Assembly (NCBI GenBank): GCA_021777565.1
Contig: JAJYDJ010000004.1
Coordinates: forward strand, 34,077 to 98,076
DNA: 64,000 nt
DNA from: a bacterium
GTDB lineage: Bacteria; Patescibacteriota; Microgenomatia; Levybacterales; UBA12049
Reading direction: 5' to 3'
Shown: in pieces, positions 10,856 through 38,856 of the stretch
Position numbering within the stretch: the stretch's first letter is position 1
How the letters are laid out: the number at the start of each line of letters is the position of its first letter
Made by a program: the position numbers and the translations under genes
Notes under the pieces: model-generated
Database searches by the model: none
What the model was told of the DNA's origin: nothing
The model's input: the letters and a program-made list of their open reading frames with translations, nothing else

Positions 10856-10926
10856 TGCCGGATCGTCTAATGGTAGGACAACGGACTCTGAATCCGTTTA
10901 TCTTGGTTCGAATCCAGGTCCGGCAG
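10856..10926 (+). tRNA. tRNA-Gln (anticodon CTG)
   Basis: Folded by hand. Acceptor TGCCGGA/TCCGGCA (7 bp), D-stem GTCT/GGAC with loop AATGGTA, anticodon stem ACGGA/TCCGT with loop CTCTGAA (U33, CTG, A37), variable TTAT, T-stem CTTGG/CCAGG with loop TTCGAAT, discriminator G. CCA is not encoded. Confidence 0.8.
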
Positions 10927-12642
10927 CAAGCTTGAAATAGCCTCATCAGAACCACACTTTTGGGTTACTAAATCAATGGAATCGCCAGGTTCGATTGTCT
11001 CCAGAACTTTAATATAGTTTTTCTTCATATTAGATAACACAATCCACGGTTCGTATTGATGTATCGATAAAATCTTATCAGTCAGTGTTAGGTTCGATCC
11101 GAGGGCGTGGAGTATAGCTCGCTTCTGTTCAGTTGTTCCTTTTTTAAACCAAATGTGCGCGTAGGTAGCAAAATTAAATGTCTGCTCACATAGTTCTAAC
11201 CACTCATCAGCGCGTTTATCTGTCTGAGCAACATTGGTGCGCACTTGCTTCTGCTCTTCTAGAAGGTTTGTCTTTTTATGCGTATATTCTTCATCAGTAA
11301 TGAAGCCTTTCAGTCGCATACTCAAGAGCTCATCAAGTTGCTTTTGTACGTCAGTATCTACAGATTGCAAGTTTTTCTTAATCGTAGTTCTTTCATGTAC
11401 TTCGTTCTTATGCAACTCCTGTAACCACTTAATTGCCCACTTACTAAATCCCTCAGGAATAGCAAACTGATCAATCAAGGCATTTACTTGTTCTTCAAAT
11501 TGAGTGACCACAAGGGAAGTTTGTTTGCATTTCTCTCCATCAGCTAACATTTTCTTTGTACAATGAAGCCACGTGTAGTGAAGAATGGTAGGATTTCTCA
11601 TTTCAGCAATCTTTTTTCCACACTGAATGCACTCATCTCTGTCCTGTGCTTTATGGAATTTCGTTTTACATATAGGGCAGATAATCTGCCATTTCTCTTC
11701 CATGGTAATATCACCACCACATTTGCCACACGTCATTTCTCCTGTGTATGCCCATTGTTTAGGTGTCAACCGTCTGTTTGCTTTCTTCCCAAGAAGGACC
11801 TGGATGGTGTCAAATTCTTCCTTTTTCATGAGAGGTTGGAAGTTGGCTGCAAACTCGCCTTCAGCTCGTACGATATGACCATAGTACTTTGGATCAGATA
11901 GTAACTTGTACCATGTACTCTTTGCCAGTGGGTTTCCACCCATTCTTTTTGTTTTTCTTGTGCGATATCCCCACTCATTGTTTAAAATATTTAGTGCTTC
12001 TATTGGTGTATGTGTCTTATTCAGAATAAGGGTAACTGCGTTATGTAGGAGTTGAAAACGATCCTTATCAACTCCCTGTATGTATTCATCGCGGTCATTC
12101 TTTATGTGGACATACCCTTGCGAGAGAGAACCACTCGGAATATACCCTGCTTTGAGTTTTGTTCTATTGCCACGCTTAACAACCTCACTTTTGTCATCAC
12201 TGTCTCTGGTTGCTCTAGTAAATTCATTCATCAAATATTCCTTATCTCGTGGAGAATTTTCAAAAACACCATGGGGAGTAACGACAATCTTTAGCTTTCC
12301 ATCAGACATGAGTTGCGTAAATCTGCCACCATCGGCGTAATTTCTCGCAATACGATTTGGGTGCCAAACCATAACGGCATCGACCTGTCCTTGTTCAATA
12401 AGGTCAATAAGTGCTTGAAATTGTGATCGTCCCATTTTGAAAGCTGATTGTTTTTCTTCAAAAACATGAATCATTGCAAGGGGAAGTTGAAATTTATTCA
12501 CAATATCACTTATTAAATCTTCTTTTTGTCCTTCAATGGAGCGAAGTTGTTTATCTTCATTGTCCTCGGTGGATTTACGAAGATACATACCAAATCTGTA
12601 TGTCTTTAGTTTTTGTTGGAGTGTGTAATCAAAAAATGCCAT
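10867..12642 (-). CDS. large serine recombinase (integrase) of the integrated element
   Basis: 591 aa. N-terminal resolvase-type catalytic domain with YLRKSTEDNE (catalytic Ser), a long recombinase domain and a Cys-rich zinc ribbon (CGKCGG...CPICK...CIQCGK). The last ~20 codons overlap the tRNA-Gln gene in antisense. Confidence 0.85.
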   Translation of the reverse strand: MAFFDYTLQQKLKTYRFGMYLRKSTEDNEDKQLRSIEGQKEDLISDIVNKFQLPLAMIHVFEEKQSAFKMGRSQFQALIDLIEQGQVDAVMVWHPNRIARNYADGGRFTQLMSDGKLKIVVTPHGVFENSPRDKEYLMNEFTRATRDSDDKSEVVKRGNRTKLKAGYIPSGSLSQGYVHIKNDRDEYIQGVDKDRFQLLHNAVTLILNKTHTPIEALNILNNEWGYRTRKTKRMGGNPLAKSTWYKLLSDPKYYGHIVRAEGEFAANFQPLMKKEEFDTIQVLLGKKANRRLTPKQWAYTGEMTCGKCGGDITMEEKWQIICPICKTKFHKAQDRDECIQCGKKIAEMRNPTILHYTWLHCTKKMLADGEKCKQTSLVVTQFEEQVNALIDQFAIPEGFSKWAIKWLQELHKNEVHERTTIKKNLQSVDTDVQKQLDELLSMRLKGFITDEEYTHKKTNLLEEQKQVRTNVAQTDKRADEWLELCEQTFNFATYAHIWFKKGTTEQKRAILHALGSNLTLTDKILSIHQYEPWIVLSNMKKNYIKVLETIEPGDSIDLVTQKCGSDEAISSLLPDLDSNQDKRIQSPLSYH

Positions 12643-12659
12643 AGGTAATAAAAAATAGC

Positions 12660-14096
12660 TTACGGATAATAGCCGCTTTCTCTGGCTGTTTTCTCCACTA
12701 TCGTATCATACATCTCATTGCATTTCTCTTCGTCGGGAACCATGTCTTGATGAAACAGAAATGACGAAAATTCCTCAAGTTCTCCCGTGGAAAACAACTC
12801 TTTGAATAACTCGTGAAGCGCATGCATAGCCGTATTGTGATGTATCAACACCTCTTTGGCTTCCTTCTGTGCATGAGCTATGGTCTTCTCTCCTAAAATT
12901 TCCATGTCATCAAAAAAGTCATGTTCAATGCGGGAGATGACGTGCGAATACGTTTGTATGAGTTGGTACACCACCATCATGTTGGCTAAGAGGTGTTGTA
13001 TTGTTGTTAGTGTTTCCTTATTTTTGAATGTGTAGGTTGTTGCTCTGTCATTTATCTTATGCGGCTTCAAGAGTGTCATACTTTCCAGAAGATCTGAGAT
13101 ATGGGAAAGTTCTATATCATATAATGATTCTTCTCCAGAATCTCGTATATAAAAGCTATCAACCGAGGCAGCATAGCGACGAAATTCTCCATGCGAATCA
13201 TATTCACCAATCTCATATGTTCCAATATCATCAACGTACCGTTGCAGCCACGTATCTGAAAACAGATGCATGTTGTTATAGATACTTTTGATCAGAATAC
13301 CTTCTTTGTCATCTTCTTGTCCTTTTTGTAAAACTCCCTGGGCTGTAAGGCTTTGTATGCGATCACATTGCTCTTTGTATACTTGCTCGTAGGCTCTCTG
13401 TACTTCTGGTGTTACCATTTGTGAAAAATGGACTGTCTTCTCAATATATTCACTTATTTCATCATCAGTAATCTCTTCAGACTTATTTTTCGTTTCTTTC
13501 GCAAGGGTAAATCGTATCCAGTCCGCATGTTGCGTAACATACTCCTCAAGAAGCTCATCCTGTGTTTTATGCATGTTTTCCAGTGCATCCTCAAGAGATT
13601 CTGTATATGGATAGTCTTGTTTGTTTATTACGCCTTGTTTTAGGAGGGTATAGTATGTCTCAGATATGGCAATCCTCTCAATTTCAATAGTTTCATTGAG
13701 CCTTCTTTGTTTTTCTTCATCTAGCTTTTGCTGATACATATCAGGAGAGATAAATATGGGGAATATTCTTTGCGTTTTGTGAATGTTTCTCGCCAGATGA
13801 TCTACAAGCATCATATAGTGGAGTTTATCCAGCAGTGCACTTTGTCGCTCGAGCTCAATCATACTAGTGCCTAAATCCACTTGGACAAATGATACTCGCT
13901 TATACAGCGTAGTATAGAAATTATATGCTCGTGCTTGTGCTATTGATAATGCATTGATAAGTGTTTTTCGCTCATTCTCATAGCTTTTACTAGCTTCATC
14001 CTCTTTGAGGATATATCCAATAACAAGCTGTGCCGTTTCTTTGGCTGTTAATGCTTGTCCGAGTTGGTTTAGCTTTTTTAAGTCAAAATGAGTCAT
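12660..14096 (-). CDS. hypothetical protein (island; helical, E/K-rich)
   Basis: 478-aa ORF immediately downstream of the recombinase on the same strand. I recognise no motif. Confidence 0.45.
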   Translation of the reverse strand: MTHFDLKKLNQLGQALTAKETAQLVIGYILKEDEASKSYENERKTLINALSIAQARAYNFYTTLYKRVSFVQVDLGTSMIELERQSALLDKLHYMMLVDHLARNIHKTQRIFPIFISPDMYQQKLDEEKQRRLNETIEIERIAISETYYTLLKQGVINKQDYPYTESLEDALENMHKTQDELLEEYVTQHADWIRFTLAKETKNKSEEITDDEISEYIEKTVHFSQMVTPEVQRAYEQVYKEQCDRIQSLTAQGVLQKGQEDDKEGILIKSIYNNMHLFSDTWLQRYVDDIGTYEIGEYDSHGEFRRYAASVDSFYIRDSGEESLYDIELSHISDLLESMTLLKPHKINDRATTYTFKNKETLTTIQHLLANMMVVYQLIQTYSHVISRIEHDFFDDMEILGEKTIAHAQKEAKEVLIHHNTAMHALHELFKELFSTGELEEFSSFLFHQDMVPDEEKCNEMYDTIVEKTARESGYYP

Positions 14097-14099
14097 AGA

Positions 14100-14480
14100 T
14101 TATCTTTTGGTTTTCCTTTCAAGAATAAGTCGATCAACCACTTCCATCTTTTCCTCCAGTTCTGCCACTTCAAATGCCTTAAGTGCAATGCCAAGCAAAT
14201 AACCTAGTGTCGTAGCAATTTTGGGTGGCAGTATGCCACTTCTCACTTCATTCATAACTTGAACAGTTGCCGTGGTTACATCACTAGCTTTGTGTATGGT
14301 AAGAGGTGACAAATCAAGATTGAGTTTTTGATACCCCTCAGATGCGCCACCTTTCTGTACAGCAATTTCTTTTACTTCCTTCATTGCTGGCTCATGGTTG
14401 ATACAGAAAAAGGAGTTATCTACAGCATAACTACCACACTGTTTGCCATTTGTTTTCATATAGTGACACTGTTTATTCAT
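14100..14480 (-). CDS. hypothetical protein with N-terminal Cys/His cluster (zinc-finger-like)
   Basis: 126 aa. N-terminus has CHYMKTNGKQCGSY...FFCINH. Overlaps the flanking genes by 4 bp, which suggests an operon. Confidence 0.4.
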   Translation of the reverse strand: MNKQCHYMKTNGKQCGSYAVDNSFFCINHEPAMKEVKEIAVQKGGASEGYQKLNLDLSPLTIHKASDVTTATVQVMNEVRSGILPPKIATTLGYLLGIALKAFEVAELEEKMEVVDRLILERKTKR

Positions 14481-15922
14481 ATAGTCTTAGGTGAGCTACT
14501 TACGGGGAGGGGGATATCCTCCTCATTATCAAATAGCTTCTGTATAGACGGTTCTGACACTTCTGACGGATTTTCTTCACACATAACTTCGCAAGTATCC
14601 TTTTCGTCCGTAGACTCATTATCTGCTTCAGGATATGTTTTTTCACTGTCAGAACTGTCAGATGTGCCAAGAAGACCATAACTCATGGCAAGTTTTGTCA
14701 GAAGCTCTTCATCATAGAGAATTCCCCGTTGCCCTTGTGTCCCTCGCTTTTTAAGAAATCCAAGCCCTTTAAGTATTCTTCCGATGGTTTCGTGAGTAAG
14801 CGTAAACCGTGTGTCACGTGTGGCATTGATCTTGTTTGCCACCAGATCTGTTGGCAAGAATGCATCACATACATCGTATTTGAGTGCAATCAGTGCTTCT
14901 AAGACATGTGCTTCTATACTATCAATGGCATCTTCTTTTTTCTGGGTATCAATAAGGGCAATGAGGCGCAAAAATGTTTCTTTTTTCTCGGGGAAGAAGG
15001 TGAGTACCAATTGATAAAGTGGAGACATAATATCACCAAATCTGCCTTGTGCTGGCTTTTCTGCAGCCACAAGAGGAGTAGCAATATGGGCAATACGAAA
15101 CGCTGTGAGCCTATCTTTGAGTGGTTGTGCATATTCTGGGAGCACTTTGTTGCTAAATGACTTGTTTGATGGCTTCATGTCTACAGCAATGCTTCGTGAT
15201 TCCAAAATGTCATCTACTGGTCTATTGGTTGCAATAATGGTTGGCCCAAACAGGTGATAGACCTTGGTATCCTTAAAGGCTCCTTTTTCAGGCCAAAGTG
15301 TGCGAGAAGACACTGATCCTTTTTCAAACCGAGCAAGAAACAAATCATCACAATTTGCTCGCTCTACTTTTTTAGGGAAGTCTTTAATATCAAAACCAAG
15401 AGATGCTTTATGGTCATTACCCCAACGGATAATATCTGCTTCACGAATACATTCTGTGTATACACCGCGTCTGGCAACATAAAGAGCCCCCTTCATGGTT
15501 CTGCTTTTCCCTCGCTCTTTTACTGCATAAAAATACAAGATAGGTGAAAAATGCAATTTGTCCAGTATATACGTATGAAAGTCCCATAGGACAAGCAGAT
15601 GATAATACAATTCGTGAGGGAGATCAGAAATATGTTTGTGATAGGCAAGCAAGTCCTCGTAGAGCCTTATGTCTTCTGTACATTCCTGTTCTGCATGATG
15701 ACTCAATGCTTGAGATAACCCTTCTTTGTCTGCAAAGGTATAAGGACATGCCTCAAGAGGTGGTGGGGCACAAATCATATCATCCAGTTCAATCTGATCA
15801 GTCAGTTTATTGTCTGTCATCAGGTAACGAAGCTTCCCCTGATCATTGATCACATCAATAACTCCTGGGATATCCAGTGCGTATATGATTTTCTTTGGTT
15901 TTTCTGTGTTAGCTTTTTCCAT
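14477..15922 (-). CDS. hypothetical protein (island; possible replication/primase-associated, acidic C-terminal tail)
   Basis: 481 aa. Only a degenerate P-loop-like KERGKSRT. I cannot assign a family. Confidence 0.35.
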   Translation of the reverse strand: MEKANTEKPKKIIYALDIPGVIDVINDQGKLRYLMTDNKLTDQIELDDMICAPPPLEACPYTFADKEGLSQALSHHAEQECTEDIRLYEDLLAYHKHISDLPHELYYHLLVLWDFHTYILDKLHFSPILYFYAVKERGKSRTMKGALYVARRGVYTECIREADIIRWGNDHKASLGFDIKDFPKKVERANCDDLFLARFEKGSVSSRTLWPEKGAFKDTKVYHLFGPTIIATNRPVDDILESRSIAVDMKPSNKSFSNKVLPEYAQPLKDRLTAFRIAHIATPLVAAEKPAQGRFGDIMSPLYQLVLTFFPEKKETFLRLIALIDTQKKEDAIDSIEAHVLEALIALKYDVCDAFLPTDLVANKINATRDTRFTLTHETIGRILKGLGFLKKRGTQGQRGILYDEELLTKLAMSYGLLGTSDSSDSEKTYPEADNESTDEKDTCEVMCEENPSEVSEPSIQKLFDNEEDIPLPVSSSPKTI

Positions 15923-16100
15923 ATGCTTTTATGTACTCGTCAAAGGCGAGTGATTTATATTGATAAATCAGGTACTTTATTTGTTGTTTTTCTACATTTT
16001 TCTCTTTGATATATGCAATATGTGCATCAACTGCCTCATCCAAAAGCACATCAAGAACAGCAAGGAATGTTTGGACATTGTGAGTAAATGACAAATTCAT
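15909..16100 (-). CDS. small hypothetical protein (island)
   Basis: 63-aa ORF overlapping its neighbours, within the minus-strand island operon. Confidence 0.3.
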   Translation of the reverse strand: MNLSFTHNVQTFLAVLDVLLDEAVDAHIAYIKEKNVEKQQIKYLIYQYKSLAFDEYIKAYGKS

Positions 16101-16336
16101 ATTGATTCCTTCCCCTTTTTTGTGATCTTTATGCGTTGTTTCTCATTGATCCAAGCTTTTTGGATAGGACGGTAGATGGCATGAAATAGTCCCAGGAGCT
16201 TTTCTCCCTGCGTAAGAGCCTCTTCATAGGAGATGGCCTTGCCATACTGCTTTTGATACAGCACTTGGTACTCAAGAATAGCTTCACGAGGGAGTGTAAC
16301 GTTATTCACTATATATTCTCCTCTCTGCAAAAACAC
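16097..16336 (-). CDS. small hypothetical protein (island)
   Basis: 79-aa ORF with a 4-bp overlap with the downstream ORF. Confidence 0.3.
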   Translation of the reverse strand: MFLQRGEYIVNNVTLPREAILEYQVLYQKQYGKAISYEEALTQGEKLLGLFHAIYRPIQKAWINEKQRIKITKKGKESI

Positions 16337-16577
16337 GTGCTTTGAGTTCTTTCAAAATATAGAAATATTTTTTAGGAGAAACGGTCAGGGTATCTGCCCA
16401 GAAAGCTTGTATGAGGATATCCAAGTCTCCATTGCCATTTCGTTTAAATACAAAAAGTAAACGATTAGACTCTGTGGGATCCAGATGATCAAGCGAAAAT
16501 CCATAGCAGATGAGTGTTGCTGCCAACGATATTTCACTGGTTTTTAGATAGTATTTTTCTTCTTTATTCATACTCAT
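16302..16577 (-). CDS. small hypothetical protein (island)
   Basis: 91-aa ORF and first gene after the repeat-containing intergenic region. A possible Xis-like or regulator role is pure inference. Confidence 0.3.
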   Translation of the reverse strand: MSMNKEEKYYLKTSEISLAATLICYGFSLDHLDPTESNRLLFVFKRNGNGDLDILIQAFWADTLTVSPKKYFYILKELKARVFAERRIYSE

Positions 16578-16637
16578 ATGGTGGCTCGCAGTCGCCTTTG
16601 AGCATGATCAGTATGAATTATGTCTAAATGGAGGTAA

Positions 16638-16684
16638 ACGGAAAAAAAGCGGGAAAATTGTGGAAAAATTCTCGGGAAATTGTA
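16638..16684. repeat. iteron-like phased A-tract direct repeats (~11-bp period)
   Basis: ACGGAAAAAAAGC / GGGAAAATTGT / GGAAAAATTCT / CGGGAAATTGT are tandem imperfect ~11-bp units, one helical turn apart. They lie upstream of the 16302..16577 operon. Confidence 0.45.
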
Positions 16685-16686
16685 CC

Positions 16687-18015
16687 TTATTTCTGAGGTA
16701 AAGCAACTAATTTATATCCAATGTTTGGTATATTAAAGAACATTATGTTAATTTCATCATTAGTCATCTTCGCATTTCTGAGAATTGGTTTTAAGTCATC
16801 CATAATATATTGAGTTGCTCTGTTAGAATCTTCTGACTGGAACGAATTAGATGGAATTTTTGCTTTTACGTCATCATATGTAGTAACGGCTTCTTTATTT
16901 ATTAAGAGTAATCTAAGTAATTTTATTCCTCTGGTACTCGGCCGAATATTTATCTGTGGGTTATCTCTAAATTTGAGTGTCGCTTTTGTTATATTGAGTT
17001 CGAGGCATCCAAAGGAATATATCTCTTCAGAAGGTATAGGCGATTGAGATACATCGCTAGATTTTTTGTTTTGGCTTTCTTGTACTTGGAGGGGTTTCTT
17101 CTCCACAGTATTAGGATTTATATTCCTAGTGTGTGATTTCATTGCCTTTTGAGTATTAAAGCCATCTACATAAACAAAGGCTCTAGGTGGAAGAGTGATG
17201 GTAACCTCGCAATGTCGGGGGGGATAGTATTCTTGAAGGTCACCACCAAAAATTATACTTTTTTGACTTTTGGATGTAACAGTTGGTTTAGAAGCGAAAT
17301 CAATTTTTACATTGTTTATAGTGAAATATCTTTCTCTTTCTAAAAGACGCAAAACATGCATAAACTTATATTTTATATCTGGTCTGTTCTTATCTGGCCG
17401 TAGTAACGAAATTCCTGCAGGATCATCTGTTGGGTTTTGCTTCTCATAAGAGCCTAGTATGGCTTCTGAAATTGTTAAGATACCACTACCATCATCAAAG
17501 TCAGCTTTTTTATCTTCATCCAAAATCTCTTTTATACATTGAAGCACTGTCTTTTTTTGTAACTCCTCGCTATATACATTACCTACTCCCTCAATCTCAT
17601 CATGAAGTGATTCAGCAAATGAGAGTAGTTGCTTATAGCTTACATCCGCTTTATATACCCCCGATTTAATCACTTTAAAGTTTTTGATAACTTTTTCTTT
17701 CTGTAGTGTATCGATGGCATCAAGAGTATCAAATCCTACTCGCCACTGGTCATTGTCTGCAAGTTCTGATGGAGAGAGAAGATCTATACTAAAAAAATCT
17801 GATTTTGGCTCCTTTAACTTCTTTCCAACCTCTGTGAGGTCGGTGACTATTTGCATCAATTCTTCAGAAATACGCTCAGCCTTTTCAAGACCAGTATTTC
17901 TGCCCAGGGGATTGAGTGACAAATCTACAGGAACAGCAAGTTGACCTTCTTGGTCAGAAAGAATCTCTTCTGTAGATTTTTTACCTAAGAATTTATTCAA
18001 TATTTTAATACTCAT
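16687..18015 (-). CDS. hypothetical DNA-binding protein with C-terminal OmpR/PhoB-type winged-helix domain
   Basis: 442 aa. The C-terminal ~80 aa (IKLLRLLLINKEAVTTYDDVKAKIP...IPNIGYKLV) fit the Trans_reg_C pattern: ...LLxxL...V...L....W......V...rLR.kL...GYrL. Confidence 0.4.
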   Translation of the reverse strand: MSIKILNKFLGKKSTEEILSDQEGQLAVPVDLSLNPLGRNTGLEKAERISEELMQIVTDLTEVGKKLKEPKSDFFSIDLLSPSELADNDQWRVGFDTLDAIDTLQKEKVIKNFKVIKSGVYKADVSYKQLLSFAESLHDEIEGVGNVYSEELQKKTVLQCIKEILDEDKKADFDDGSGILTISEAILGSYEKQNPTDDPAGISLLRPDKNRPDIKYKFMHVLRLLERERYFTINNVKIDFASKPTVTSKSQKSIIFGGDLQEYYPPRHCEVTITLPPRAFVYVDGFNTQKAMKSHTRNINPNTVEKKPLQVQESQNKKSSDVSQSPIPSEEIYSFGCLELNITKATLKFRDNPQINIRPSTRGIKLLRLLLINKEAVTTYDDVKAKIPSNSFQSEDSNRATQYIMDDLKPILRNAKMTNDEINIMFFNIPNIGYKLVALPQK

Positions 18016-18122
18016 GAATCTGGCTTGATGATATCAGATCAAAAGTTATGTTACAAATATGGTTACTATCTACAAAGAATGATGAGAATATTAAAACTAT
18101 TATTAGTTTATATAGGAATTTA

Positions 18123-19097: not shown

Positions 19098-19147
19098 ATT
19101 GAATGAGGTCTTGTTCGGTAACTATTGGTTTATATGTTATATGCACT

Positions 19148-19190
19148 ATACCATAGTTATGGTAATATACCATTTGTACTTTTGTAGTAC
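19148..19190. promoter_or_regulatory. overlapping palindromes in a divergent promoter region (candidate operator)
   Basis: ACCATAGTTATGGT, ATGGTAATATACCAT and GTACTTTTGTAGTAC inverted repeats. They lie between the divergently transcribed 18123..19097 (-) and 19229..20263 (+) genes. Confidence 0.35.
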
Positions 19191-19228
19191 AAATGCTGAC
19201 GATAAATAATCCAGTAATATCATAAGTC

Positions 19229-27724: not shown

Positions 27725-27762
27725 AGATTTACTCATGAGTGGTATAGTCATAAATGAAATAA

Positions 27763-28491: not shown

Positions 28492-28542
28492 ATAATCTTA
28501 CAATATTGAGCTTTTAATGCTCTGAAAATAAATACATATAAG

Positions 28543-29129: not shown

Positions 29130-29233
29130 ATATTCTTAAATTCTTAAAAGAAATGAGACCAATTTTCTTGCAGATGATATTCATCATAATGTTAGGATCG
29201 ATCGATTTAAACGGCTTTATAGAGGCTCATAGC

Positions 29234-29647
29234 CTATTCCTGTTGTTGGGCTAGATACTGATCTATCAACTCAATATCTCTTTTATCTTTCTCTCTATTC
29301 AGTTTTTCTTTGTAGTAACGTACTTCCTCTATTCGCACAAATGGGATACCTTCTCTTATTTCTGCTTCTTTAATCATCGTTGGTATATCCTTTCTTGTTA
29401 CTGCAAACCACCAGTTAGATATTTTTACTCCACTAAATCGTATGAATCCTTCTTCATTTGGCGTATATTCCTGAATGAGCTTTCCCCAGAGTTTATTTGT
29501 AACGATAAGGTCGATATTAGGTACTTCACGCAGGCCATACAACCCAAGAAGAGCACTGCCAAACACAGCGTACTCGCTGATTGGGAAGCTTTGTTCTTTA
29601 ACAGAAGCAATCAGGGTTTGAATGGACATAAAACTGATTATAAGCAA
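29234..29647 (-). CDS. hypothetical protein (possible minimal nucleotidyltransferase-like)
   Basis: 137 aa. FGSALLGLYGLREVPNIDLIV partially fits a GS...D NTase motif. Weak. Confidence 0.3.
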   Translation of the reverse strand: MLIISFMSIQTLIASVKEQSFPISEYAVFGSALLGLYGLREVPNIDLIVTNKLWGKLIQEYTPNEEGFIRFSGVKISNWWFAVTRKDIPTMIKEAEIREGIPFVRIEEVRYYKEKLNREKDKRDIELIDQYLAQQQE

Positions 29648-29688
29648 CTCTCTCTAGAGTTTCTACTAAGAGTTGCTATAATACACTC

Positions 29689-30909: not shown

Positions 30910-31841
30910 ATTTAACTATTCTTGTACCTGCTTGGAATGAAGAAAGAAATATAACAAGCTTTCTTAGTGATATTGCAGATCAATTAAATTATAGTTCATT
31001 TAAAACAGATGTCATCATCCTTGCTAATGGATGTGTCGACAATACTATCCCACTGGCAAAGTCTCATATACAAAAACAGTCCTTACCAAATGTTTCATGG
31101 CTAATACAAGTGTTTGATGATCCATTTAAGAATAAAGTTCTTAATGCAGGCATCGAGTTGGCAAAATCCGATATTATACTCAACCTTGATGCCGATTCTC
31201 GTTTAGAAAAAAATTGTATTTCTCGCCTTTATAGCTTTTTACTAGATAATCCAAAGGTTAATTTAGTTGGAGGGCTGGATATACCTATTTACGACAAGCT
31301 CAATAAGGAAACACTACTTTATCAATTTCAGAGAACTCAACAGATCTGGAGAGAAGAAAGAGGTCGTGTTATGGCAATCGGTGCTGTTATGATGTATCGT
31401 AAATCGTCATTTAACGGGTTCCCCTTGGATGCAATCTCTGAAGACACCTGGCTCTCTTTATACATTGCTTCTAAGTTTGGCTGGGAATCTGTAAAAGTAC
31501 TCATGGATGCCAATATTCACATCTTCGCTCCGACAAGTTGGAGTGATTACTTAAAACAACAAACTCGTTGGGACACAGGATATGTCCAACTTATGAAAAA
31601 CCACCCAGAGCTTCAATCAACGTATGATAATCGTAGAAGCTTGTTTAAAAGAAGAAGTAATGAAGAGATATTCGAGAGTGTATACAACAGGCTTGATGAA
31701 GAAAAGATAGCTCGATCGCGCTTAGTTGAGCTTCGTGATATAATCAATATCATTATTGAAGAAAATAGTGATATTGAGTACGACTCAATACTGAGAAATG
31801 TAGGGACATGGGACCCTATTATTTCCACAAAGGGAGCATAA
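30897..31841 (+). CDS. family 2 glycosyltransferase
   Basis: 314 aa. LTILVPAWNEERNI, ILANGCVDNT, DADSRL (DxD). Overlaps the upstream GT9 gene by 13 nt. Confidence 0.7.
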   Translation: MGKVDLTILVPAWNEERNITSFLSDIADQLNYSSFKTDVIILANGCVDNTIPLAKSHIQKQSLPNVSWLIQVFDDPFKNKVLNAGIELAKSDIILNLDADSRLEKNCISRLYSFLLDNPKVNLVGGLDIPIYDKLNKETLLYQFQRTQQIWREERGRVMAIGAVMMYRKSSFNGFPLDAISEDTWLSLYIASKFGWESVKVLMDANIHIFAPTSWSDYLKQQTRWDTGYVQLMKNHPELQSTYDNRRSLFKRRSNEEIFESVYNRLDEEKIARSRLVELRDIINIIIEENSDIEYDSILRNVGTWDPIISTKGA

Positions 31842-31842
31842 T

Positions 31843-32499
31843 ATGAAAACTTATACGAGAGATGAAATTTATGAGCTTCACAAAAAATATACTCAAGGCG
31901 CTCATCCTGAGCGTTTTCTAGATAGTGTCTGGACACATTCTCAAATTGTTGCTGAAATTGCAGATCGTATTTGTGACTTTCTCAAAAAGACGTATGAGGT
32001 CACTCCTAATCGCGAGTTAGTTCAGACTGGGGCACTTCTTCATGACATTGGAGTATATAAATGTCATGATGACGAGTTAAACCCCGTCCAGGAGCCTGGA
32101 TATATTTCCCATGGTATAGAAGGCTATAAAATACTCAAAAAAGAAAGTTATCCAGAGTACTTGGCTCGCTTCCCGTTGTCACATACAGGAACAGGTATTA
32201 CAACAGAAGATATTGAAAGAGAAAACTTCAACTTAGAACTTAAAAATTATATTCCTGTCACTCTTGAAGAAGAGATTGTTTGCTATGCTGACAAGTTTCA
32301 TACAAAGTATCCAGCTTTTGACACGTTTGATAAAGCAAAGTCTAGACTTGAGAAATTTGACCCAAGTAAAGGGATACTTATGAATCGATTTAAAAAGAAG
32401 TTTGGTATTCCTGATGTAAGCGATCTAGAGGCCAAATACAAAGATTGGCAAGAAGAGTTAGATCACTACCTCACCTCCCTGTCCGAAGCTAAAAAATGA
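31843..32499 (+). CDS. HD-domain metal-dependent phosphohydrolase
   Basis: 218 aa. H...GALLHDIGVYKCHDD (the HD motif) plus downstream His/Asp residues. Confidence 0.65.
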   Translation: MKTYTRDEIYELHKKYTQGAHPERFLDSVWTHSQIVAEIADRICDFLKKTYEVTPNRELVQTGALLHDIGVYKCHDDELNPVQEPGYISHGIEGYKILKKESYPEYLARFPLSHTGTGITTEDIERENFNLELKNYIPVTLEEEIVCYADKFHTKYPAFDTFDKAKSRLEKFDPSKGILMNRFKKKFGIPDVSDLEAKYKDWQEELDHYLTSLSEAKK

Positions 32500-33602
32500 T
32501 CTCTAAAGAATTAGTTGTCATAGAACGATATGTCCCTAGAAATCCTGTCCATGAACCAAATAGAGATGGTTTTCGTGCAGACAGTTTATTAGTAATCGAC
32601 AATGCCGATTTAGGTCCAATTGGTGTAGTAAGAAAAAAGACGCATTACGTTAACAGTCCAGCAGATGTGATGATAATGCCCTTAGAGGGAGCAATCTCAC
32701 AAATTACTGAACTATCCGAAGCAGAAGCAGCCTCATTCTTGTTAACTTGTGCGAGAGTAGTTGATGCAATGAGAGAAATTTCGCCTGATGGCTCTCCAGT
32801 TATTGCAATAAATCAGCAACCTGATTGTATAATGCTTCCTACTAAATTTGCTCCAGATGGCACTGAGCTTAAAGTACAGACAATAGATGCAATACATGCA
32901 CATGTATTTTTAGAAGATGGGCGAGGACTACCGCGTGGGACAATTTCTTCAATGGATAAAGTTGCATCAACTGACTTCTTTGATCCACTCGGACATGCAG
33001 TAAGTCAATTATTTATTAGTGAGGTTAATAGACAGTTGGATGAAGCTGGGCTTGCTACTCAATCAACATACAACACAGATCACTTCCCACTTGGTATCAA
33101 TGTACCTTTCGACGGAGATATTGTTGCAGTACTTACAGATCCTCGTATTGCACGATTTATACAAGCTACGCAGAGGAGTTACGTACAGACATATAGAATG
33201 ATTGAGCAGATTTGGCAAAATTACTCAGGTGAAGCAAGGCGAGATCAGATTACACAATTTTTCTCAGGGTTATCTGGAGAAAACATACAAGTAAGAGAAT
33301 TTGTAGAAAGAGTGATTCTTTCTCTTAGAGAAGATGTATCTGGTGTTGAAAGACACCATAGATTAGTACAAGGCCCTGCTCTGACCTGGGTTATTTATGA
33401 AAGAGATGGAAGGTGTTATATTCACTTAACTCCTCGCTTTTTTTCTCGCGGAAACGCAATGGAAGATTTAGGGGTTTGGGTAGAACCAGTAGAGGAAGTT
33501 ACACCAGATCTATCTGAAGCAAATGACTTCTATAGGTTACTTATGGTAAAATTGGGATCAACCCTTCTTGTTTCTGAAGGTGCATCCTTATATGAAAATT
33601 AA
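32496..33602 (+). CDS. hypothetical protein with HIT-superfamily-like N-terminal region
   Basis: 368 aa. LLVIDNADLGPIGVVRKKTHYVNSPADVMIMPLEG...IDAIHAHVF resembles the HIT fold, but the third His of the HxHxHxx nucleotide-binding motif is replaced by Phe. Tentative. Confidence 0.3.
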   Translation: MISKELVVIERYVPRNPVHEPNRDGFRADSLLVIDNADLGPIGVVRKKTHYVNSPADVMIMPLEGAISQITELSEAEAASFLLTCARVVDAMREISPDGSPVIAINQQPDCIMLPTKFAPDGTELKVQTIDAIHAHVFLEDGRGLPRGTISSMDKVASTDFFDPLGHAVSQLFISEVNRQLDEAGLATQSTYNTDHFPLGINVPFDGDIVAVLTDPRIARFIQATQRSYVQTYRMIEQIWQNYSGEARRDQITQFFSGLSGENIQVREFVERVILSLREDVSGVERHHRLVQGPALTWVIYERDGRCYIHLTPRFFSRGNAMEDLGVWVEPVEEVTPDLSEANDFYRLLMVKLGSTLLVSEGASLYEN

Positions 33603-35274
33603 AAAAGCAAATAAAGTGCCTTTCATAACCTCACTTGAGGACGATTTCCTATCAGGAAAGAATAAAAAACAGAAAAAGTTATTCAATGAGGTAATTGATG
33701 CTGGATTTGATTTTTATTCAGGCAAACAACGTGATCAAAAATTTCTTGTCTATAGAACTCCAGACGAGCTTAAAGAAGTCTTTGCAGAAGCAATGCCAGA
33801 AGATAGTACTGACCTACCGTCAATCATCAACTATCTCAGACTAATCGGACACTATTCAATTTCCCAATCAGATTTGAGCTACTTAGCGTTTCCTGACTCT
33901 GGGAACTCTATAGCTGCACTACTTGGAGACATCTATGGTAAATTTTTGAATCAAAACCTGATTGCATTTGATCGAAGTGCACCAGCAGCAACCATTATAG
34001 AAATTCAGCTTATTGAATGGTTACGAGCGTTAATCGGGTATGAAAGTAAAGAGTTAAAGCAAATTGAAAACCTAGCAGAAGTATCAGGTATGTGCACGAC
34101 AGGCGGGCATATGTCAAATCACGTAGCCACTCTCTCTGCACTTAATTGCAAATACCCTCAAATAAAAAAAGATGGGCTTTCAAGTCTAGATCATTCCCCG
34201 AAAATAGTTTTAGCTGGCAAGATAGGTCACTACTCATATGGAGCTGCTATGCACCATTTAGGACTTGGGAACGCAAATATTATTAACACTGATTCTAACG
34301 ATGACTTCACGACTAACATAGATGCACTTGAGAATGTGTTAGAACAGCACAAGGACAAAAATGATATTTTTATGGTTGTAGCAGTAGCGGGAAACTGTAG
34401 AACAACGGGAATAGATAACATTGCCTCAATTGCGAAAATATGCAAGAAATATGGAATATGGCTCCATGTTGATGCATGTCATGGAGGCAGTTTATTATTC
34501 TCTGATAAATTAAAAAAACGCTATCTCATGGGTATCGAAGAGGCAGATTCTGTCGCACTAGATCCCCATAAAGGGCTTTTTGTGGCATACCCTTGCAGCT
34601 TTGTTCTCTTTAAGAAGAGAGATACGCTTGTAACATTCACTCGATATGAAAAAGAGGCAAGAAATGGTGAATCATGGGATTTAGGTTACATAACACCTTT
34701 CTTAGGATCAAGAGGATTTGAGTCCCTCAAGCTTATGTTACTCATAAAGCACTTAGGCAAAAAAAGGCTGAGCGAGATAACTGAAAAAAGGCAGGGAGAT
34801 GCCTTATATGTAGAGTCACTCATAGCAAAGTCAGGATATTTTGTTTTGTTTAATGATATGACATTTTATCGAATGGCTTTTGTTTATTATCCAAACAAAA
34901 TTAGAAAGCAAGTCTCAAAGTTCACTCTCTCAGATGAGACTAATCAAAAAATTATCAATTGTATTGATCATTATACACATACAATCAACAGTGAGTTATA
35001 TAAGGAAGGTGATATTTGTCTTGATGAGTTTAAATTACATGACATAGGGAACCAGACAGCAACTAATGCTAAGGAGACACGATTTTATGTAATGAGTATT
35101 ACGACAGGTAACCCACTACTTACCAATGAGAACTTAAAGAGATCCTTAAGCTTTCTCTTTAAAAAGGCAAAGCGTTACGAGTCTGCTATGGGAAAAGACA
35201 TAGTATCTATAATAAAAAGTGACACATATGCCCCGAAGGTAACAAAAACATATGGACCAGCAGGATGGAATTAA
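33568..35274 (+). CDS. PLP-dependent group II amino-acid decarboxylase
   Basis: 568 aa. The Lys-containing S-x-H-K site is in DSVALDPHKGLFVAYPCSFV, with an upstream GGHMSNHVAT-type region. The start may be the Met at 33592. Confidence 0.7.
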   Translation: MFLKVHPYMKIKKANKVPFITSLEDDFLSGKNKKQKKLFNEVIDAGFDFYSGKQRDQKFLVYRTPDELKEVFAEAMPEDSTDLPSIINYLRLIGHYSISQSDLSYLAFPDSGNSIAALLGDIYGKFLNQNLIAFDRSAPAATIIEIQLIEWLRALIGYESKELKQIENLAEVSGMCTTGGHMSNHVATLSALNCKYPQIKKDGLSSLDHSPKIVLAGKIGHYSYGAAMHHLGLGNANIINTDSNDDFTTNIDALENVLEQHKDKNDIFMVVAVAGNCRTTGIDNIASIAKICKKYGIWLHVDACHGGSLLFSDKLKKRYLMGIEEADSVALDPHKGLFVAYPCSFVLFKKRDTLVTFTRYEKEARNGESWDLGYITPFLGSRGFESLKLMLLIKHLGKKRLSEITEKRQGDALYVESLIAKSGYFVLFNDMTFYRMAFVYYPNKIRKQVSKFTLSDETNQKIINCIDHYTHTINSELYKEGDICLDEFKLHDIGNQTATNAKETRFYVMSITTGNPLLTNENLKRSLSFLFKKAKRYESAMGKDIVSIIKSDTYAPKVTKTYGPAGWN

Positions 35275-36622
35275 AATAAGAACTATATTAGAGTCAAATA
35301 GATTCTTATCGCCAACATACTCAAAGTGGTATGCGAATATTTTTGTGGATTTGTTTCACAGTAGTAGTCTCAGCCCTAGTGACTGTTTAAACCAGCTCGA
35401 AGCTGGTTATCATCCTCATAGAGTTTTATATAAATTTTTAGGTGGAAGCACATTTACGCAAGATAAACTTAACTATCATCCGATTGATTACAGTAAACAT
35501 ATTTCATTCTGCACGAAAGATGAACAAATGCATTGTAATGACCATGATCTAATTGACTACCTTAATTCTCAATATATTGGTAATTTTTCTGGATTTATCG
35601 AAAGCCTTTCTCCAATAACTACGGGAAGAATGTACTTAGATACTGGCACTGCACCGAAGCTACTGTTTCTCCCAAATAACAGAACATTTGTAGTTATTTG
35701 TATAAAGTCACAAAAGGAATATCTTGCAAATTACTATGTACTGAGTAGGCTGTTTAATGAAAGTAACTGTTGTAATGATCTTACTATTAAGACTATTGAT
35801 TCAATTGGTGTAGTGCGCAGCAACGGATTACAGTACTTCGTATCAGAATTTAAAGGTTTAGATTATGAAGCACTGATACTTGAATATGATAAAACAGAGA
35901 AAAAAGATACCTTATTAAGGGTATCACGAGAGCTAGAAGAACTATTTCTGGAAAACAATCTTTTTATTAGAAATCTTGCTCCTAGAAATATTTTATTTAA
36001 TGGCAATCATACGAGCTATCTTATTGATTTTGACAATGTCTATAACATCGAGGACAAGCACGATGTAAAACTCGCATCTAAGGAATTAAACAGAGACATA
36101 TGGTATGGGGATGTACTCTCTCGAAGAGATATAAAAACAATATTCAAAAAAAGAATCTTTTCATTTCCAGATGAGGCACAATTAACAGACATCTTTGAAA
36201 CGACTTTCTTTGAACGAGACAAAGTTAGATCAAGGGACTTAAAATACCTTTACTCTTTAGTAAGAGCCTTCGAGCAGTATGATCATTATTTAGACATAGA
36301 TATCTATGGTCACCAATTGGGTAGGTATATCTCAGATTATTGGGATTTATCAAGTGAAGTTAAACTGTATAAGTTTATTGCCCAAAATAAAACAAAGATT
36401 AAATACCTTAGAGCAATTCTTTATTTATTGTCTAGGCTCGATCAGGAGTTACTTCTAAGAAAAAAATACCACTTAGATAAAGATCTGGAATTGTTATCTG
36501 AACTAGCATTTCATAAAATTGCAGAAAATAGAGCTAACCCAGGTGTGAAGGCTCTTAAAGTTACACTTGATCCAGATTTAAGTTTCACAGAAAGGTACTT
36601 GGCGGTAAGGAGTGCAATATGA
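35252..36622 (+). CDS. hypothetical protein with protein-kinase-like / APH-like catalytic loop
   Basis: 456 aa. IRNLAPRNILFNGNHTSYLIDFDNV resembles an H/xRDxxxxN catalytic loop plus a DFD (DFG-like) motif. Confidence 0.35.
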   Translation: MDQQDGIKIRTILESNRFLSPTYSKWYANIFVDLFHSSSLSPSDCLNQLEAGYHPHRVLYKFLGGSTFTQDKLNYHPIDYSKHISFCTKDEQMHCNDHDLIDYLNSQYIGNFSGFIESLSPITTGRMYLDTGTAPKLLFLPNNRTFVVICIKSQKEYLANYYVLSRLFNESNCCNDLTIKTIDSIGVVRSNGLQYFVSEFKGLDYEALILEYDKTEKKDTLLRVSRELEELFLENNLFIRNLAPRNILFNGNHTSYLIDFDNVYNIEDKHDVKLASKELNRDIWYGDVLSRRDIKTIFKKRIFSFPDEAQLTDIFETTFFERDKVRSRDLKYLYSLVRAFEQYDHYLDIDIYGHQLGRYISDYWDLSSEVKLYKFIAQNKTKIKYLRAILYLLSRLDQELLLRKKYHLDKDLELLSELAFHKIAENRANPGVKALKVTLDPDLSFTERYLAVRSAI

Positions 36623-37161
36623 AGAAAAAAATATCATGGAAAGAACTAACAACAAGAAATGGCTATCCAGCTGACGAAGTAATATCTGCACTCCAAAAAG
36701 AGATCCGTCGCAATAATCAGGATAAAGCAGTTTACTGGGCATATGAGTTATGCATCTCTGGGAAAGTATTTGAGACAAAGTTCTGGGAAAGAATAATAAC
36801 TATCTCAGTGGAAGACATTGGTTTCGGTAACCCTTTGGCCGTTGTAATAGTCAATTCTCTTAAGAACTCATATTACTCTGAATTTGAGCACCAAGACGAC
36901 TCGTTAATTCAGGCTCTATTTGCTGCAGCATATTTAGCCTCATGCACGAAAGACAGATACATTGATGAATATAAAAACTATCTAAAAGAGAGTAAAATCA
37001 AGTTAGAGGTTCCTGATTATGCACTAGATAAGCACACAAAGAGGGGAAAGACATTGGGGAGAGATGACAAACACTTCTGGACCGTCGCAGCTAAACTTTC
37101 TCCTGAGTTAGCAAAAAGGAACAAGAAGTATTTAAAACTTGTCTTAAAATCACTCAAATAA
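36619..37161 (+). CDS. hypothetical protein
   Basis: 180-aa ORF with a 4-bp overlap with the upstream gene. No motif recognised. Confidence 0.35.
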   Translation: MKKKISWKELTTRNGYPADEVISALQKEIRRNNQDKAVYWAYELCISGKVFETKFWERIITISVEDIGFGNPLAVVIVNSLKNSYYSEFEHQDDSLIQALFAAAYLASCTKDRYIDEYKNYLKESKIKLEVPDYALDKHTKRGKTLGRDDKHFWTVAAKLSPELAKRNKKYLKLVLKSLK

Positions 37162-37162
37162 A

Positions 37163-38350
37163 ATGGCAGAGGCAGAACCACTTCGAATTGGTATTGATGT
37201 CAGTAGAGCTAGTCGTGAAAATCATGGCATTCCCATTTATACACGTAGCGTCTTGGCTGAGCTTGGCAAGTTAGATACGACTGACCAGTTTGTCTTATTA
37301 AGTTATCCAGATAGTCCAGTTGCTCATGGATTTGGCCTTCAAGATCCTGAGTTAGCGGCAATTCCATATTCTGGGAGATATATCCCTTGGGTGAGAGTAT
37401 TTCAGGAACAAGTGCTTTATCCAGCAGCACAACAAAGGCTCAATTTAGATGTCATGTGGCACCCTCAAAATCATGGCCAGTTTTGGACTCCAGTTGGTTA
37501 CGTTTGTACCCTACATGATGTTTTGCCATACTCCAGACCAGATCTTGCGCAGGACTTAGACACAAGAAGAGAGCAAGCTCTTTACTGGAGTCGAGTACAA
37601 AGTGCTGCTCACGCAGACATGATAATCACAGTCTCAGAATTTAGTAGAAAAGAAATCATTAGGCTACTTGGCGTTGATCCATCGCGCGTTGTTGCAGTAC
37701 AGAATGGTATAGACCACACAACATTTAGAGTTCTACGGTCAGAGGTAGATAGAGCAAGACTACAAACACAATATGGTTTACCAGAAAGATATGTTCTTAC
37801 AGTTGGTAGTTATGGACCACATAAGGACCTAGCAACAATGATAAGGGCATTCAAAACCAGCGACCTCATGCGACTTGGATATAACCTCGTTATGGTAGGG
37901 CCTAAGGATGAAATTGTATACACGTCTGACCATGAAGGATTGGAAGAGATGGTGAGGGACGAAGGGCTAGAAGGAAGAGTCTTAATGCTTCCACCAGTGC
38001 CAGTTACAGATTTAGTAGGGATGTATAACGGTGCCAGTATGTTTTGCATTACATCTCAATTTGAGGGGTTTGGGCTTACGCCTCTCGAAGCAATGGCTTG
38101 CGGGGTACCTGTTATTTCATCTGACTCAAGCTCGTTGCCTGAAGTTTGTGGGAACGCGGCGCTATATGCTCATGTCGGAGACTATCTAGGGTTTGCCGAG
38201 CGGATGAACTTATTAGCAACGGATATTGAATTAGCTCGCAGAATGACTAGCTTAGGCCTTATGCAAGCTGCCAAATACGATTGGGCAACTACCGCTCAGA
38301 AAACACTTGATATATTACAACGGGTCGGAAGAACGAACAGAAGGTCTTAG
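37163..38350 (+). CDS. GT4 (group 1) glycosyltransferase
   Basis: 395 aa. C-terminal [28 protein letters not shown] is the classic GT4 motif. Noticeably higher GC than its neighbours. Confidence 0.8.
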
Positions 38351-38442
38351 CAATGGAGGAGAAATAATTGTAAGCTCTAGTGAATCGCATAATTTACACT
38401 TTGCGATATTAAGTAGGTTCTAATGTGATCCATTACCCGCAG

Positions 38443-38480
38443 CCCATAAAAGACCTGGCTTATGCCAGTTTTTTTATGGG
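38443..38480 (+). terminator. rho-independent terminator after the GT4 gene
   Basis: CCCATAAAAGACCTGGC-TTAT-GCCAGTTTTTTTATGGG. The inner stem is CTGGC/GCCAG with a TTAT loop, followed by a T7 run. Confidence 0.5.
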
Positions 38481-38505
38481 TTGGCGTGTGACATGAGTTC
38501 ATGCT

Positions 38506-38856
38506 TTAGCTAGAATCCGACACTTCGAAGAAGTTAGTGCCCTTGTGGTACACGTCCGGCAGCACGTTTGTACGCATGTCTGGCTTAAGAAGCACAACAT
38601 ATGGCTTTTTGAAGCTAAAAGTAAGCATTTTGTCTTTCAAAAATTTATAGCGCCATCCGTGCCAAAAGTCGCTGTCAACAAAAATAAGAAGCGAGCCGTT
38701 TACTATGCAGTCAGGCTTACCGTAGAGCTTGGGGTGCTTCTCATAGTTTATTTTATAGCTGTCTAATAAACCCAAAAACTTTTGCTCTAGCTGCGTATTA
38801 GTACTTCTAATACTAGACATGTTATATGTGCGTTGAGCTTTAGTGAGGTTGTCCAT
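38506..38856 (-). CDS. vsr: very-short-patch repair endonuclease (Vsr)
   Basis: 116 aa. TKAQRTYNMSSIRSTNTQLE...GKPDCIV...FVDSDFWHGW matches the Vsr N-terminal and catalytic motifs (RSxNMSxIRsKNT...PD...FxHGCFWH). Confidence 0.7.
   Translation of the reverse strand: MDNLTKAQRTYNMSSIRSTNTQLEQKFLGLLDSYKINYEKHPKLYGKPDCIVNGSLLIFVDSDFWHGWRYKFLKDKMLTFSFKKPYVVLLKPDMRTNVLPDVYHKGTNFFEVSDSS
38545..38564. repeat. att-core-like copy of the tRNA-Gln 3' end (GTCCGGCAGCA)
   Basis: GTGGTACACGTCCGGCAGCA. The 11-nt core is identical to tRNA-Gln 10918..10928 and 17/20 identical to the 41404..41423 copy. Lies inside the Vsr 3' coding end. Confidence 0.5.

Follow-up and report, generated by a model that had tools for sequence, protein, structure and literature searches.

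tRNA genes are the textbook targets of tyrosine integrases. Large serine recombinases (LSRs), for their part, drive the insertion of staphylococcal cassette chromosome (SCC) elements at the 3' end of rlmH, where tandem arrays occur, and in SSV-type archaeal integrases and in mycobacteriophage integration-dependent immunity attP lies within coding sequence (int or the repressor), so that the product is altered by integration. Here, we describe a locus in a 64,000-nt stretch of a Patescibacteriota genome (Levybacterales; contig JAJYDJ010000004.1, positions 34,077 to 98,076; hereafter the window), at which the gene of an LSR reads antisense into a tRNA gene. In our reading, to which we assign a probability of about 80%, an integrative element of about 27.5 kb was put into the Patescibacteria chromosome by its own LSR at the extreme 3' end of tRNA-Gln(CTG).

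Relation to described systems

With SCC and SCCmec elements (CcrAB/CcrC), the locus has in common that an LSR drives insertion, that a conserved housekeeping gene is entered at its 3' end and kept intact, and that tandem composite arrays carry repeated att cores. The SCC target, however, is a protein-coding gene, and the ccr genes lie internally without reaching across attSCC. The systems in which integration alters a gene product use tyrosine recombinases, while in the present locus a serine recombinase exchanges its 3' tail for a peptide of similar length read from tRNA antisense. Compared with the large serine integrases of phages and other mobile genetic elements, such as A118/LI, phiC31, Bxb1, and SPbeta SprA, enzyme and site geometry are of the known kind, with a Resolvase catalytic domain, a weak recombinase domain match, a possible Cys-rich zinc ribbon, inverted arms in an attP that measures about 50 bp, few bases common to attL and attR, and a 5-bp outward motif in attP (in part PMC3783163). 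What differs is the tRNA 3' end as target, the apparent use of a universal T-loop motif, and an attP in the 3' coding end of the recombinase, whose C-terminus changes on integration; furthermore, phage genes are absent, and no relative of the recombinase family was found in IMG/VR viral contigs.

Islands and prophages inserted by tyrosine integrases likewise use the tRNA 3' end, carry the integrase next to the tRNA, and form hotspots by repeated insertions, but their enzymes belong to another superfamily with another chemistry, and no long direct repeat marks the true junction here. Serine integrases are usually reported from other sites than tRNA genes: in a mycobacterial survey, tyrosine-integrase elements used tRNA genes and serine-integrase elements did not (PMC10654092), and a large LSR survey makes no mention of tRNA (PMC10083194). 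Our literature search, which covered one library and does not prove absence, found no description of tRNA-targeting serine integrases or of an attP inside a serine integrase gene. Tycheposons of Prochlorococcus (10.1101/2020.12.28.424599) are also elements with non-phage cargo next to tRNA genes, in which newer insertions push older ones deeper and leave fragmented integrases and partial tRNAs; a minority carry LSRs, and 910 of 937 use tyrosine recombinases. Of the tycheposon traits, tRNA adjacency, cargo, and multiple scars are present in the window, while lineage (another phylum) and tyrosine recombinase are not shared and no replication domain or gene was recognisable in the backbone of the element; in a term search of the tycheposon paper, no description of an attP in the recombinase gene or of T-loop mimicry was found.

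The resident recombinase and its tRNA target

The features on which the reading is based are the following (window coordinates):

10856-10927, + strand: tRNA-Gln(CTG), called by ARAGORN and Rfam (tRNA, 63 bits), the sole tRNA in the window
10867-12642, - strand: LSR gene, 591 aa in the integrated state (Pfam, PHROG, and alignment)
10894-10959: attL, with the tRNA 3' half as B arm and the recombinase 3' coding end as P' arm
38410-38475: attR, with P arm GGTTCTAA at 38416-38423, 19 nt from the centre at 38442/38443
28543-29034, - strand: relic R0, 3' fragment (last ~130-150 codons) of a second recombinase of a distant subfamily
~28610-28675: intact, symmetric attP-like site of R0, with AGTTCGAA at 28618-28625, the core at 28636-28646, and TTCGTACA at 28660-28667

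Judged by its sequence, the resident enzyme is an LSR and carries the catalytic domain of that group: the Resolvase N-terminal domain (PF00239) was detected at residues 19-135 (E 5.6e-14), and PHROG 95 (integrase) matched with 5e-39. The recombinase domain PF07508 was weak in the resident protein (E 0.0021; 18.7 bits, under the cut-off of 21.1), PF07508 and PF13408 being on record for several of its homologues, and the best NCBIfam matches, namely CcrA, CcrB, and XisF, were weak and far under cut-off. In an alignment of 45 sequences, Y20, R22, and S24 as well as seven Cys at 305-372 were invariant, and the open reading frame (ORF) in the window is intact and keeps all family-invariant residues. 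A Phage_integrase domain as in tyrosine integrases was detected by Pfam in none of the ORFs between 10.8 and 45 kb. Neither Pfam (about 48 ORFs) nor PHROGs (10 ORFs) revealed capsid, portal, terminase, or tail genes, in agreement with the view of the first-pass annotation that the cargo is not phage-like.

That annotation had also placed tRNA-Gln at the left edge of an island and the recombinase stop about 10 nt within the tRNA body on the opposite strand. Both statements hold: the stop codon (10867-10869) lies 11 nt inside the tRNA 5' end, and the ORF covers 61 of the 72 nt of the tRNA in antisense. These 61 nt are read as ...LLPDLDSNQDKRIQSPLSYH*, and it is this antisense strand that supplies the last 18 residues of the integrated-state protein, PDLDSNQDKRIQSPLSYH.

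For comparison, 120 homologous proteins and 83 related loci with DNA were analysed, the named homologues belonging to the Candidate Phyla Radiation (CPR) groups WWE3, Levybacteria, Woesebacteria, and Pacebacteria. Based on their C-termini, the proteins were grouped into 54 with a tail of the tRNA-antisense type (DSN/ESN...), 7 with a native tail, 48 ending at or just past the core, and 11 fragments. A tRNA gene on the opposite strand beneath the recombinase 3' end was present in 42 of the 83 loci (25 Gln, 6 Asn, 5 Ser, 4 Met, 1 Pro, and 1 Arg), and all integrated members at least 39% identical to the query were located at tRNA-Gln (CTG or TTG), in most cases with the stop about 11 nt from the tRNA 5' end as in the window. 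In 17 of the 83 loci, no tRNA was near, and the recombinase had a native tail of the form ...[DN]x[VI]RT[WY]..., followed 13 residues on by F-x-[VI]-P-[SN]-[FY]. This distribution of tails and tRNAs speaks for the earlier suggestion that attP lay in the recombinase 3' end. Judging from the window and about 80 related loci, members of this LSR clade are, as a rule, situated at tRNA 3' ends. Relatives at tRNA-Gln had the recombinase and parts of the backbone in common and differed in cargo; a search of relatives for the far att site, covering 10 kb, revealed no second core.

A second, distant LSR (27.5% identical) was noticed in locus L090 (17427-19141), where it reads antisense into tRNA-Leu(TAG); therefore, the arrangement reaches beyond one clade.

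A foreign, LSR-borne element at tRNA-Gln is real. The GC content was 0.432 in the left and 0.439 in the right flank, compared to 0.367 for 10929-28646, 0.377 for 28647-38564, 0.385 for 38565-41422, and 0.373 for 41423-45000; overall, the island ranged from 0.30 to 0.41 (mean 0.37) between flanks of 0.43-0.44. The tetranucleotide correlation to the flanks in 5-kb windows was 0.87-0.93 outside and 0.28-0.69 inside, with the break at the tRNA. Together with the family-wide tRNA pattern, this composition break supports the earlier claim of a horizontally acquired element put into tRNA-Gln by an LSR. The break itself had been predicted correctly, but the flanks have 43-44% GC and not about 50%, and the low-GC DNA extends past 38.5 kb, continuing beyond a bump at 37-39 kb to about 42.5-45 kb.

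Probable attachment sites and extent of the element

P0002, encoded at locus L088, is 70% identical to the recombinase and its closest relative. It is tRNA-free and has a native tail, which makes its attP directly readable. Only one stretch of the window, 38416-38442, matches the P arm of this attP, GGTTCTAATATCGTCCATTACCCGCAG, which is 27 nt long (24 of 27 nt, 0 expected by chance). The P' arm of attL has TCAGAACC (in reverse complement, GGTTCTGA) at 10946-10953, at a distance of 19 nt from the centre. When attP was rebuilt from attR and attL, it was identical to the L088 attP at 55 of 66 positions, with its arms GGTTCTAA and, in reverse complement, GGTTCTGA each 19 nt from the centre; GGTTCT[AG]ATG is found at this distance on both arms of both sites. 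The rebuilt recombinase has 593 aa and ends in ...AISSLLRVMDHIRTYLISQSVNYAIH, P0002 in ...AIPSLLRVMDDIRTYYRTTRDQFYTPNVTS; the rebuilt C-terminus is typical of the family, with SLLRVMDHIRTY... against SLLRVMDDIRTY... in P0002.

The sequence common to attL and attR is GCAGC only. Since a serine recombinase needs only a common central dinucleotide, tRNA-core repeats are not required at the junctions. From the symmetry of the arms, we infer a crossover centre G/C at 10926/10927 and 38442/38443, corresponding to the discriminator G73 and the first trailer base. Because the crossover would lie there, the whole tRNA body would be chromosomal, contrary to the first-pass annotation, which had the tRNA rebuilt by integration. 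To the right of the attR centre, the B' flank reads CCCATAAAAGA, followed by a hairpin and T7 terminator at 38455-38475. In the reciprocal product of the junction, the tRNA is followed by CCCATAAAAGA and this hairpin and terminator, which is plausible as the native end of the tRNA transcription unit. The predicted sequences are:

Empty-site junction: ...GGTCCGGCAG joined to CCCATAAAAGACC...
attB: GGTCCGGCAGCCCATAAAAGACC
attP: CATTACCCGCAGCAAGCTTGAAAT

Thus, the element most probably spans about 10927-38442. The earlier estimate of 27.6 kb was nearly right in size, but its right end at 38564 has to be given up in favour of the cognate attR at 38442/38443, 120 nt further left, which is supported by the unique match to the L088 P arm and by the rebuilt attP. 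The 11-nt tRNA core GTCCGGCAGCA, on which the former boundary was based, is indeed present at 38554-38564, yet four identical copies of it exist, each of them on the + strand, at 10918, 28636 (R0), 38554 (R1), and 41412 (R2), with 0 expected by chance, and none of these is the cognate junction of the resident recombinase. The repeats may belong to other, recombinase-less inserts.

According to the mechanism that we propose, attP would span the last ~20 codons of the recombinase, and integration would split the gene end; in the chromosomal state, the gene would be completed by 18 codons of tRNA antisense, and in the free state it would carry a different, family-conserved tail. The attB would be composed of the T-arm and acceptor strand of the tRNA plus about 20 bp of trailer, with a crossover at the G73/C74 dinucleotide that would leave the tRNA body intact. 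The recombinase would read GGTTCGAA in attB and, in each of the attP arms, a mimic lying 5 bp farther out, a geometry known for LSR half-sites. The element is chimeric, with a dead fragment of a second family member inside, and the site is an integration hotspot, because a repeat-flanked restriction-modification (R-M) cassette and more low-GC DNA lie beyond the element. In these two respects, the single clean unit described before did not stand: the relic R0 with its own attP lies inside, and further acquired DNA follows outside.

Apparent T-loop mimicry and probable exchange of the C-terminal tail

The T-arm and 3' acceptor strand of tRNA-Gln make up the B arm of attB and attL, with the T-loop motif GGTTCGAA at 10905-10912. 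This motif is 14 nt from the inferred centre in the tRNA, and the same or a near-same motif is 19 nt from the centre in attP. It is established for LSR sites that attB has the outer (zinc-ribbon) motif of each half-site 5 bp closer to the centre than attP does (in part PMC3783163). Read by eye, the gap of 10 nt between mimic and core is constant in L088, L132, L138, and in R0 and attR of the window.

In attP, the T-loop mimic is the DNA coding for the tail residues [VI]-R-T-[WY]. Among 19 distinct attP sites, the codons at the mimic were strongly skewed, with Thr as ACC in 15/18 (background 25%), Arg as CGA in 13/19 (13%), and Val as GTT in 14/14 (37%), a bias that indicates a constraint acting on the DNA. 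In the distal F-x-[VI]-P motif of the tail, by contrast, the codons vary synonymously (TTC/TTT, CCT/CCG/CCC, and four Ser codons), as would result from selection for the peptide. Thus, the free-form recombinase has a conserved C-terminal peptide that is absent from the integrated form. Based on symmetry and codon bias, the recombinase appears to recognise the tRNA T-loop motif GGTTCGAA, and as the integrated recombinase gene runs head-on to the tRNA gene, transcriptional interference is possible.

Tentatively, these observations may be extended to an LSR clade widespread among the Patescibacteria, a proposal that we consider unproved and rather doubtful as a whole. In such a clade, the universal T-loop would serve as half of attB, its mimics would be placed 5 bp further out in attP within the enzyme's own last codons, and retargeting among Gln, Asn, Ser, Met, Leu, Pro, and Arg tRNAs would require a change of the inner acceptor-like part only. 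The tail (...[VI]RT[WY]...F-x-[VI]-P-[SN]-[FY]) would be swapped for a tRNA-antisense peptide and the gene placed head-on to a strongly transcribed tRNA, so that the enzyme might sense whether it is free or integrated, with a built-in directionality or expression switch.

Weighing of alternative readings

Several points weigh against an element of this kind and extent. The crossover position and the recognition of the T-loop are derived from symmetry and codon bias. Between the B' and B arms, no symmetry was apparent (5/33), and the B' arm may itself be part of an older insert. The distal F-x-[VI]-P motif is missing from the tail rebuilt from attR, which also ends early, suggesting decay of the attR coding. 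No terminal overlaps that would indicate circularity were found in the native-tail contigs. Neither an empty site nor an excised circle was found, the island being present in 4/4 same-species contexts examined. Finally, three cargo genes, namely those for AspRS, an SDR, and a GluTR-AspRS-like fusion, form a chromosomal operon in Patescibacteria contig L177. As this trio belongs to the chromosome of another CPR genome, the host might be unable to dispense with part of the cargo.

The reading that survives best beside ours holds that the island is old, has become fixed (domesticated), and has lost its mobility, with recombinase and att sites as fossils. It is a real possibility, though we think it unlikely. 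The presence of the island in every same-species contig found, the decayed distal tail coding at attR, and the conserved CPR operon in the cargo are all in its favour, but the recombinase ORF is intact with its invariant residues, the P arm is identical at 24 of 27 positions to that of a free relative, and the composition is still strongly foreign. Moreover, this alternative concerns present-day activity and is compatible with the proposed origin by LSR-driven insertion. Because all four same-species contexts seen carry the island, present-day mobility is only putative, as is any function of the tail swap.

The comparison with related genomes for an unoccupied site, recommended earlier, revealed no true empty site of this species; exact-protein look-ups of flank genes yielded same-species contigs only, all with the island (one flank protein was without record). 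The window itself is part of a metagenomic contig of 953 kb. Homologues of the flanking M16 peptidase are rare, the only named match being a 'Patescibacteria group bacterium', and a contig scan with this protein gave only matches at ~25% identity. The closest homologue (55% identical) is followed by tRNA-Gln(CTG) without a recombinase, on a short contig, which comes nearest to an unoccupied site.

Some further observations concern this flank. In the distant relative L095, M16 is directly followed by MarR/MFP/MFS genes, without tRNA-Gln; in the window (1-10500), these genes are inverted and on the other side of M16. Gene order and the missing tRNA-Gln show that the locus was therefore rearranged around the hotspot. 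Two independent short-read contigs are broken next to M16, L083 at a position equal to 10890 of the window and L092 inside tRNA-Gln; these breaks in tRNA-Gln could reflect population heterogeneity at the site or a repeat common to another tRNA-Gln gene.

An improbable alternative is tandem accretion, in which 10929-28646 (17.7 kb) would be the active unit with R0 as its right end, and 28647-38443 an older decayed element with a truncated recombinase. The left arm of R0 is a perfect P type (AGTTCGAA, 10 nt, and the exact 11-nt core), and joining 28646 to 10929 (TGTCTATGTCCGGCAGCAAGCTTGAAAT) would give the recombinase a full native tail with an F-H-V-P-T-Y motif. Tandem arrays are known from SCC, and also from tycheposons (10.1101/2020.12.28.424599). 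However, the arms of R0 are symmetric (14/33) about 28642/28643, a centre 2 nt off the active type, and a simple tandem array would place the two P arms in opposite order. In a tblastn search, R0 aligned to residues 474-578 of P0001, the resident enzyme (39% identity, E 5e-15), and P0002, P0040, and P0065 align through the R0 core into its tail, IDSIRTFCGSNDKHFHVPTY, which is of the family's native type. Fragment and tail align contiguously to members of the distant subfamily (L138, L132), so that both arms look cognate to the dead recombinase, whereas the site matching the closest relative of the live one is at 38416-38442. On account of this match, the unit ending at R0 was dropped, and because the arms look cognate to the dead gene and the arm of the live recombinase is at 38.4 kb, R0 is read as an internal relic of a fused element and not as a tandem junction.

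The least probable alternative, a single island from the tRNA to the direct repeat GTCCGGCAGCA at 38554-38564 as recombination core, can point to an exact 11-nt repeat far beyond chance, only 120 nt from the inferred junction, and to a recombinase frame that stays open (590 aa) when 38564 is joined to 10929 (GTACACGTCCGGCAGCAAGCTTGAAAT), but it was dropped for the far better P arm at 38416-38442 with its match to the closest relative's attP, the more so as the core exists in four copies, a T-loop mimic at the spacing of a P arm is missing from the DNA on the left side of this copy, the tail encoded via this junction, VYHKGTNFFEVSDSS, matches no family member, and the flank of the copy is 72% identical to that of the 41412 copy, both bracketing the R-M cassette.

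Backbone and cargo genes

Inside the element proposed here, annotation revealed a conserved backbone next to the recombinase and two blocks of cargo genes:

12660-18015, - strand: conserved backbone, with ORFs 12660-14096, 14100-14480, 14477-15922, 15909-16100, 16097-16309, 16302-16577 (DUF5659), and 16687-18015
16097-16309, - strand: 70-aa two-helix protein that co-occurs with the recombinase family
18123-28491: cargo block 1 (Pfam, NCBIfam)
18123-19097, - strand: AspRS/AsnA-like catalytic-only paralog, 324 aa, archaeal type, without anticodon-binding domain, under NCBIfam cut-offs
21452-22846: AspRS, 464 aa
22849-23595: SDR
23597-25597, + strand: fusion of GluTR N-terminal domain, NAD-binding domain, and AspRS-like catalytic domain, 666 aa
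Further genes of cargo block 1: GT2, amidohydrolase, P-loop kinase-like, NUDIX, and a 242-aa protein of no assigned function
29689-38350, + strand: cargo block 2 (Pfam), with GT9-like, GT2, HD hydrolase, 368-aa unknown, pyridoxal phosphate (PLP)-dependent decarboxylase, 456-aa unknown, MgsA_C-like, and GT4

Same-strand small genes following the recombinase had been noted, and the backbone on the - strand fits this description; apart from DUF5659, its ORFs gave no Pfam, PHROG, NCBIfam, or PDB match. It shows synteny to the genes lying upstream of the L088 recombinase and partial synteny to those in L097, L139, and L163, and the relative L089 has a DnaG-like primase. The 70-aa protein gave 48 BLASTP matches among the ORFs of the 83 loci (in about 47 loci), often directly upstream of the recombinase, and no PDB or Pfam match. 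An AlphaFold2 single-sequence model (predicted local distance difference test score, pLDDT, 86) displayed a helical hairpin with helices at 8-22 and 28-68. LSRs recombine attP with attB, while for excision they depend on a directionality factor. By its co-occurrence, the protein is a candidate directionality factor or regulator. More generally, a small helical protein of 55-80 aa with the consensus LS.EAI.EFK.IY..E.G..IS..EA...G..L..LF..IYRPIP, belonging to no known family, was observed as a near-constant companion of the recombinase family.

Cargo block 1 harbours three class-II synthetase paralogs. The GluTR-AspRS-like fusion has at least 178 homologues, nearly all named ones of which are from Patescibacteria and annotated as 'tRNA ligase-related' or AspRS, and a description of this fusion was not found in the literature. 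Its domain combination with AspRS and SDR suggests an uncharacterised tRNA-dependent reduction of an aspartyl ester. In cargo block 2, the PLP-dependent decarboxylase was PanP/DABA-decarboxylase-like according to NCBIfam, and no PADLOC defence system was detected.

DNA beyond the element

To the right of the predicted attR, the following features were identified:

38490-38564, + strand: D1 repeat, copy 1, with the R1 core at its end
41348-41422, + strand: D1 repeat, copy 2, with the R2 core at its end; 15 nt (41409-41423) identical to the tRNA 3' end
38506-41017, - strand: R-M cassette outside the element, with Vsr (38506-38856), NgoFVII-type endonuclease (38882-39901), and C5 cytosine methyltransferase (39908-41017)
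41423-45000: further low-GC tract with a 304-aa unknown, GIY-YIG, EamA, SRPBCC-like, and small ORFs

The two D1 copies, each 75 nt long and 72% identical to one another, bracket 2.86 kb containing the R-M cassette, and a T-run is found ahead of each, at the first copy after a clear hairpin. The repeats showed no T-loop mimic at P-arm spacing, and a degenerate tRNA or small RNA was rejected as their identity, as there was no Rfam match and the fold z-scores were about 0; one 5-bp hairpin with two compensatory changes, seen by eye, is too little to build on. We read the repeats as scars or ends of other recombinase-less inserts at the hotspot, and the arrangement possibly represents a mobilisable R-M cassette or integration scars. 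The 120 nt between attR and R1 appear to have two features in common with the cassette, an 8-mer on the left, CTGGCTTA, noted by eye close to the end, and the D1 repeat ending the right side. The Vsr ORF crosses the R1 core into the D1 repeat, with its last ~19 codons encoded by the repeat, and is another gene whose 3' end lies over an att-like core.

The tract at 41423-45000 is probably older acquired DNA. For its 304-aa protein (41516-42430), a homologue with 44% identity is encoded in L141, where it lies 5 kb upstream of a family recombinase. In the window, a GIY-YIG nuclease gene comes after the gene of the 304-aa protein.

Implications

For annotation, the locus is a warning that an obvious direct repeat of the tRNA core can be the wrong boundary. 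The locus and its relatives also suggest that the site is recognised by way of a constant T-loop motif and a variable acceptor-like core. If this is true, the family would be a natural case of modular serine-integrase retargeting, which would be of relevance to genome engineering, and it would offer a testable case in which integration alters the recombinase. In CPR bacteria, a group with few well-known mobile elements, such elements would represent a route for gene cargo.

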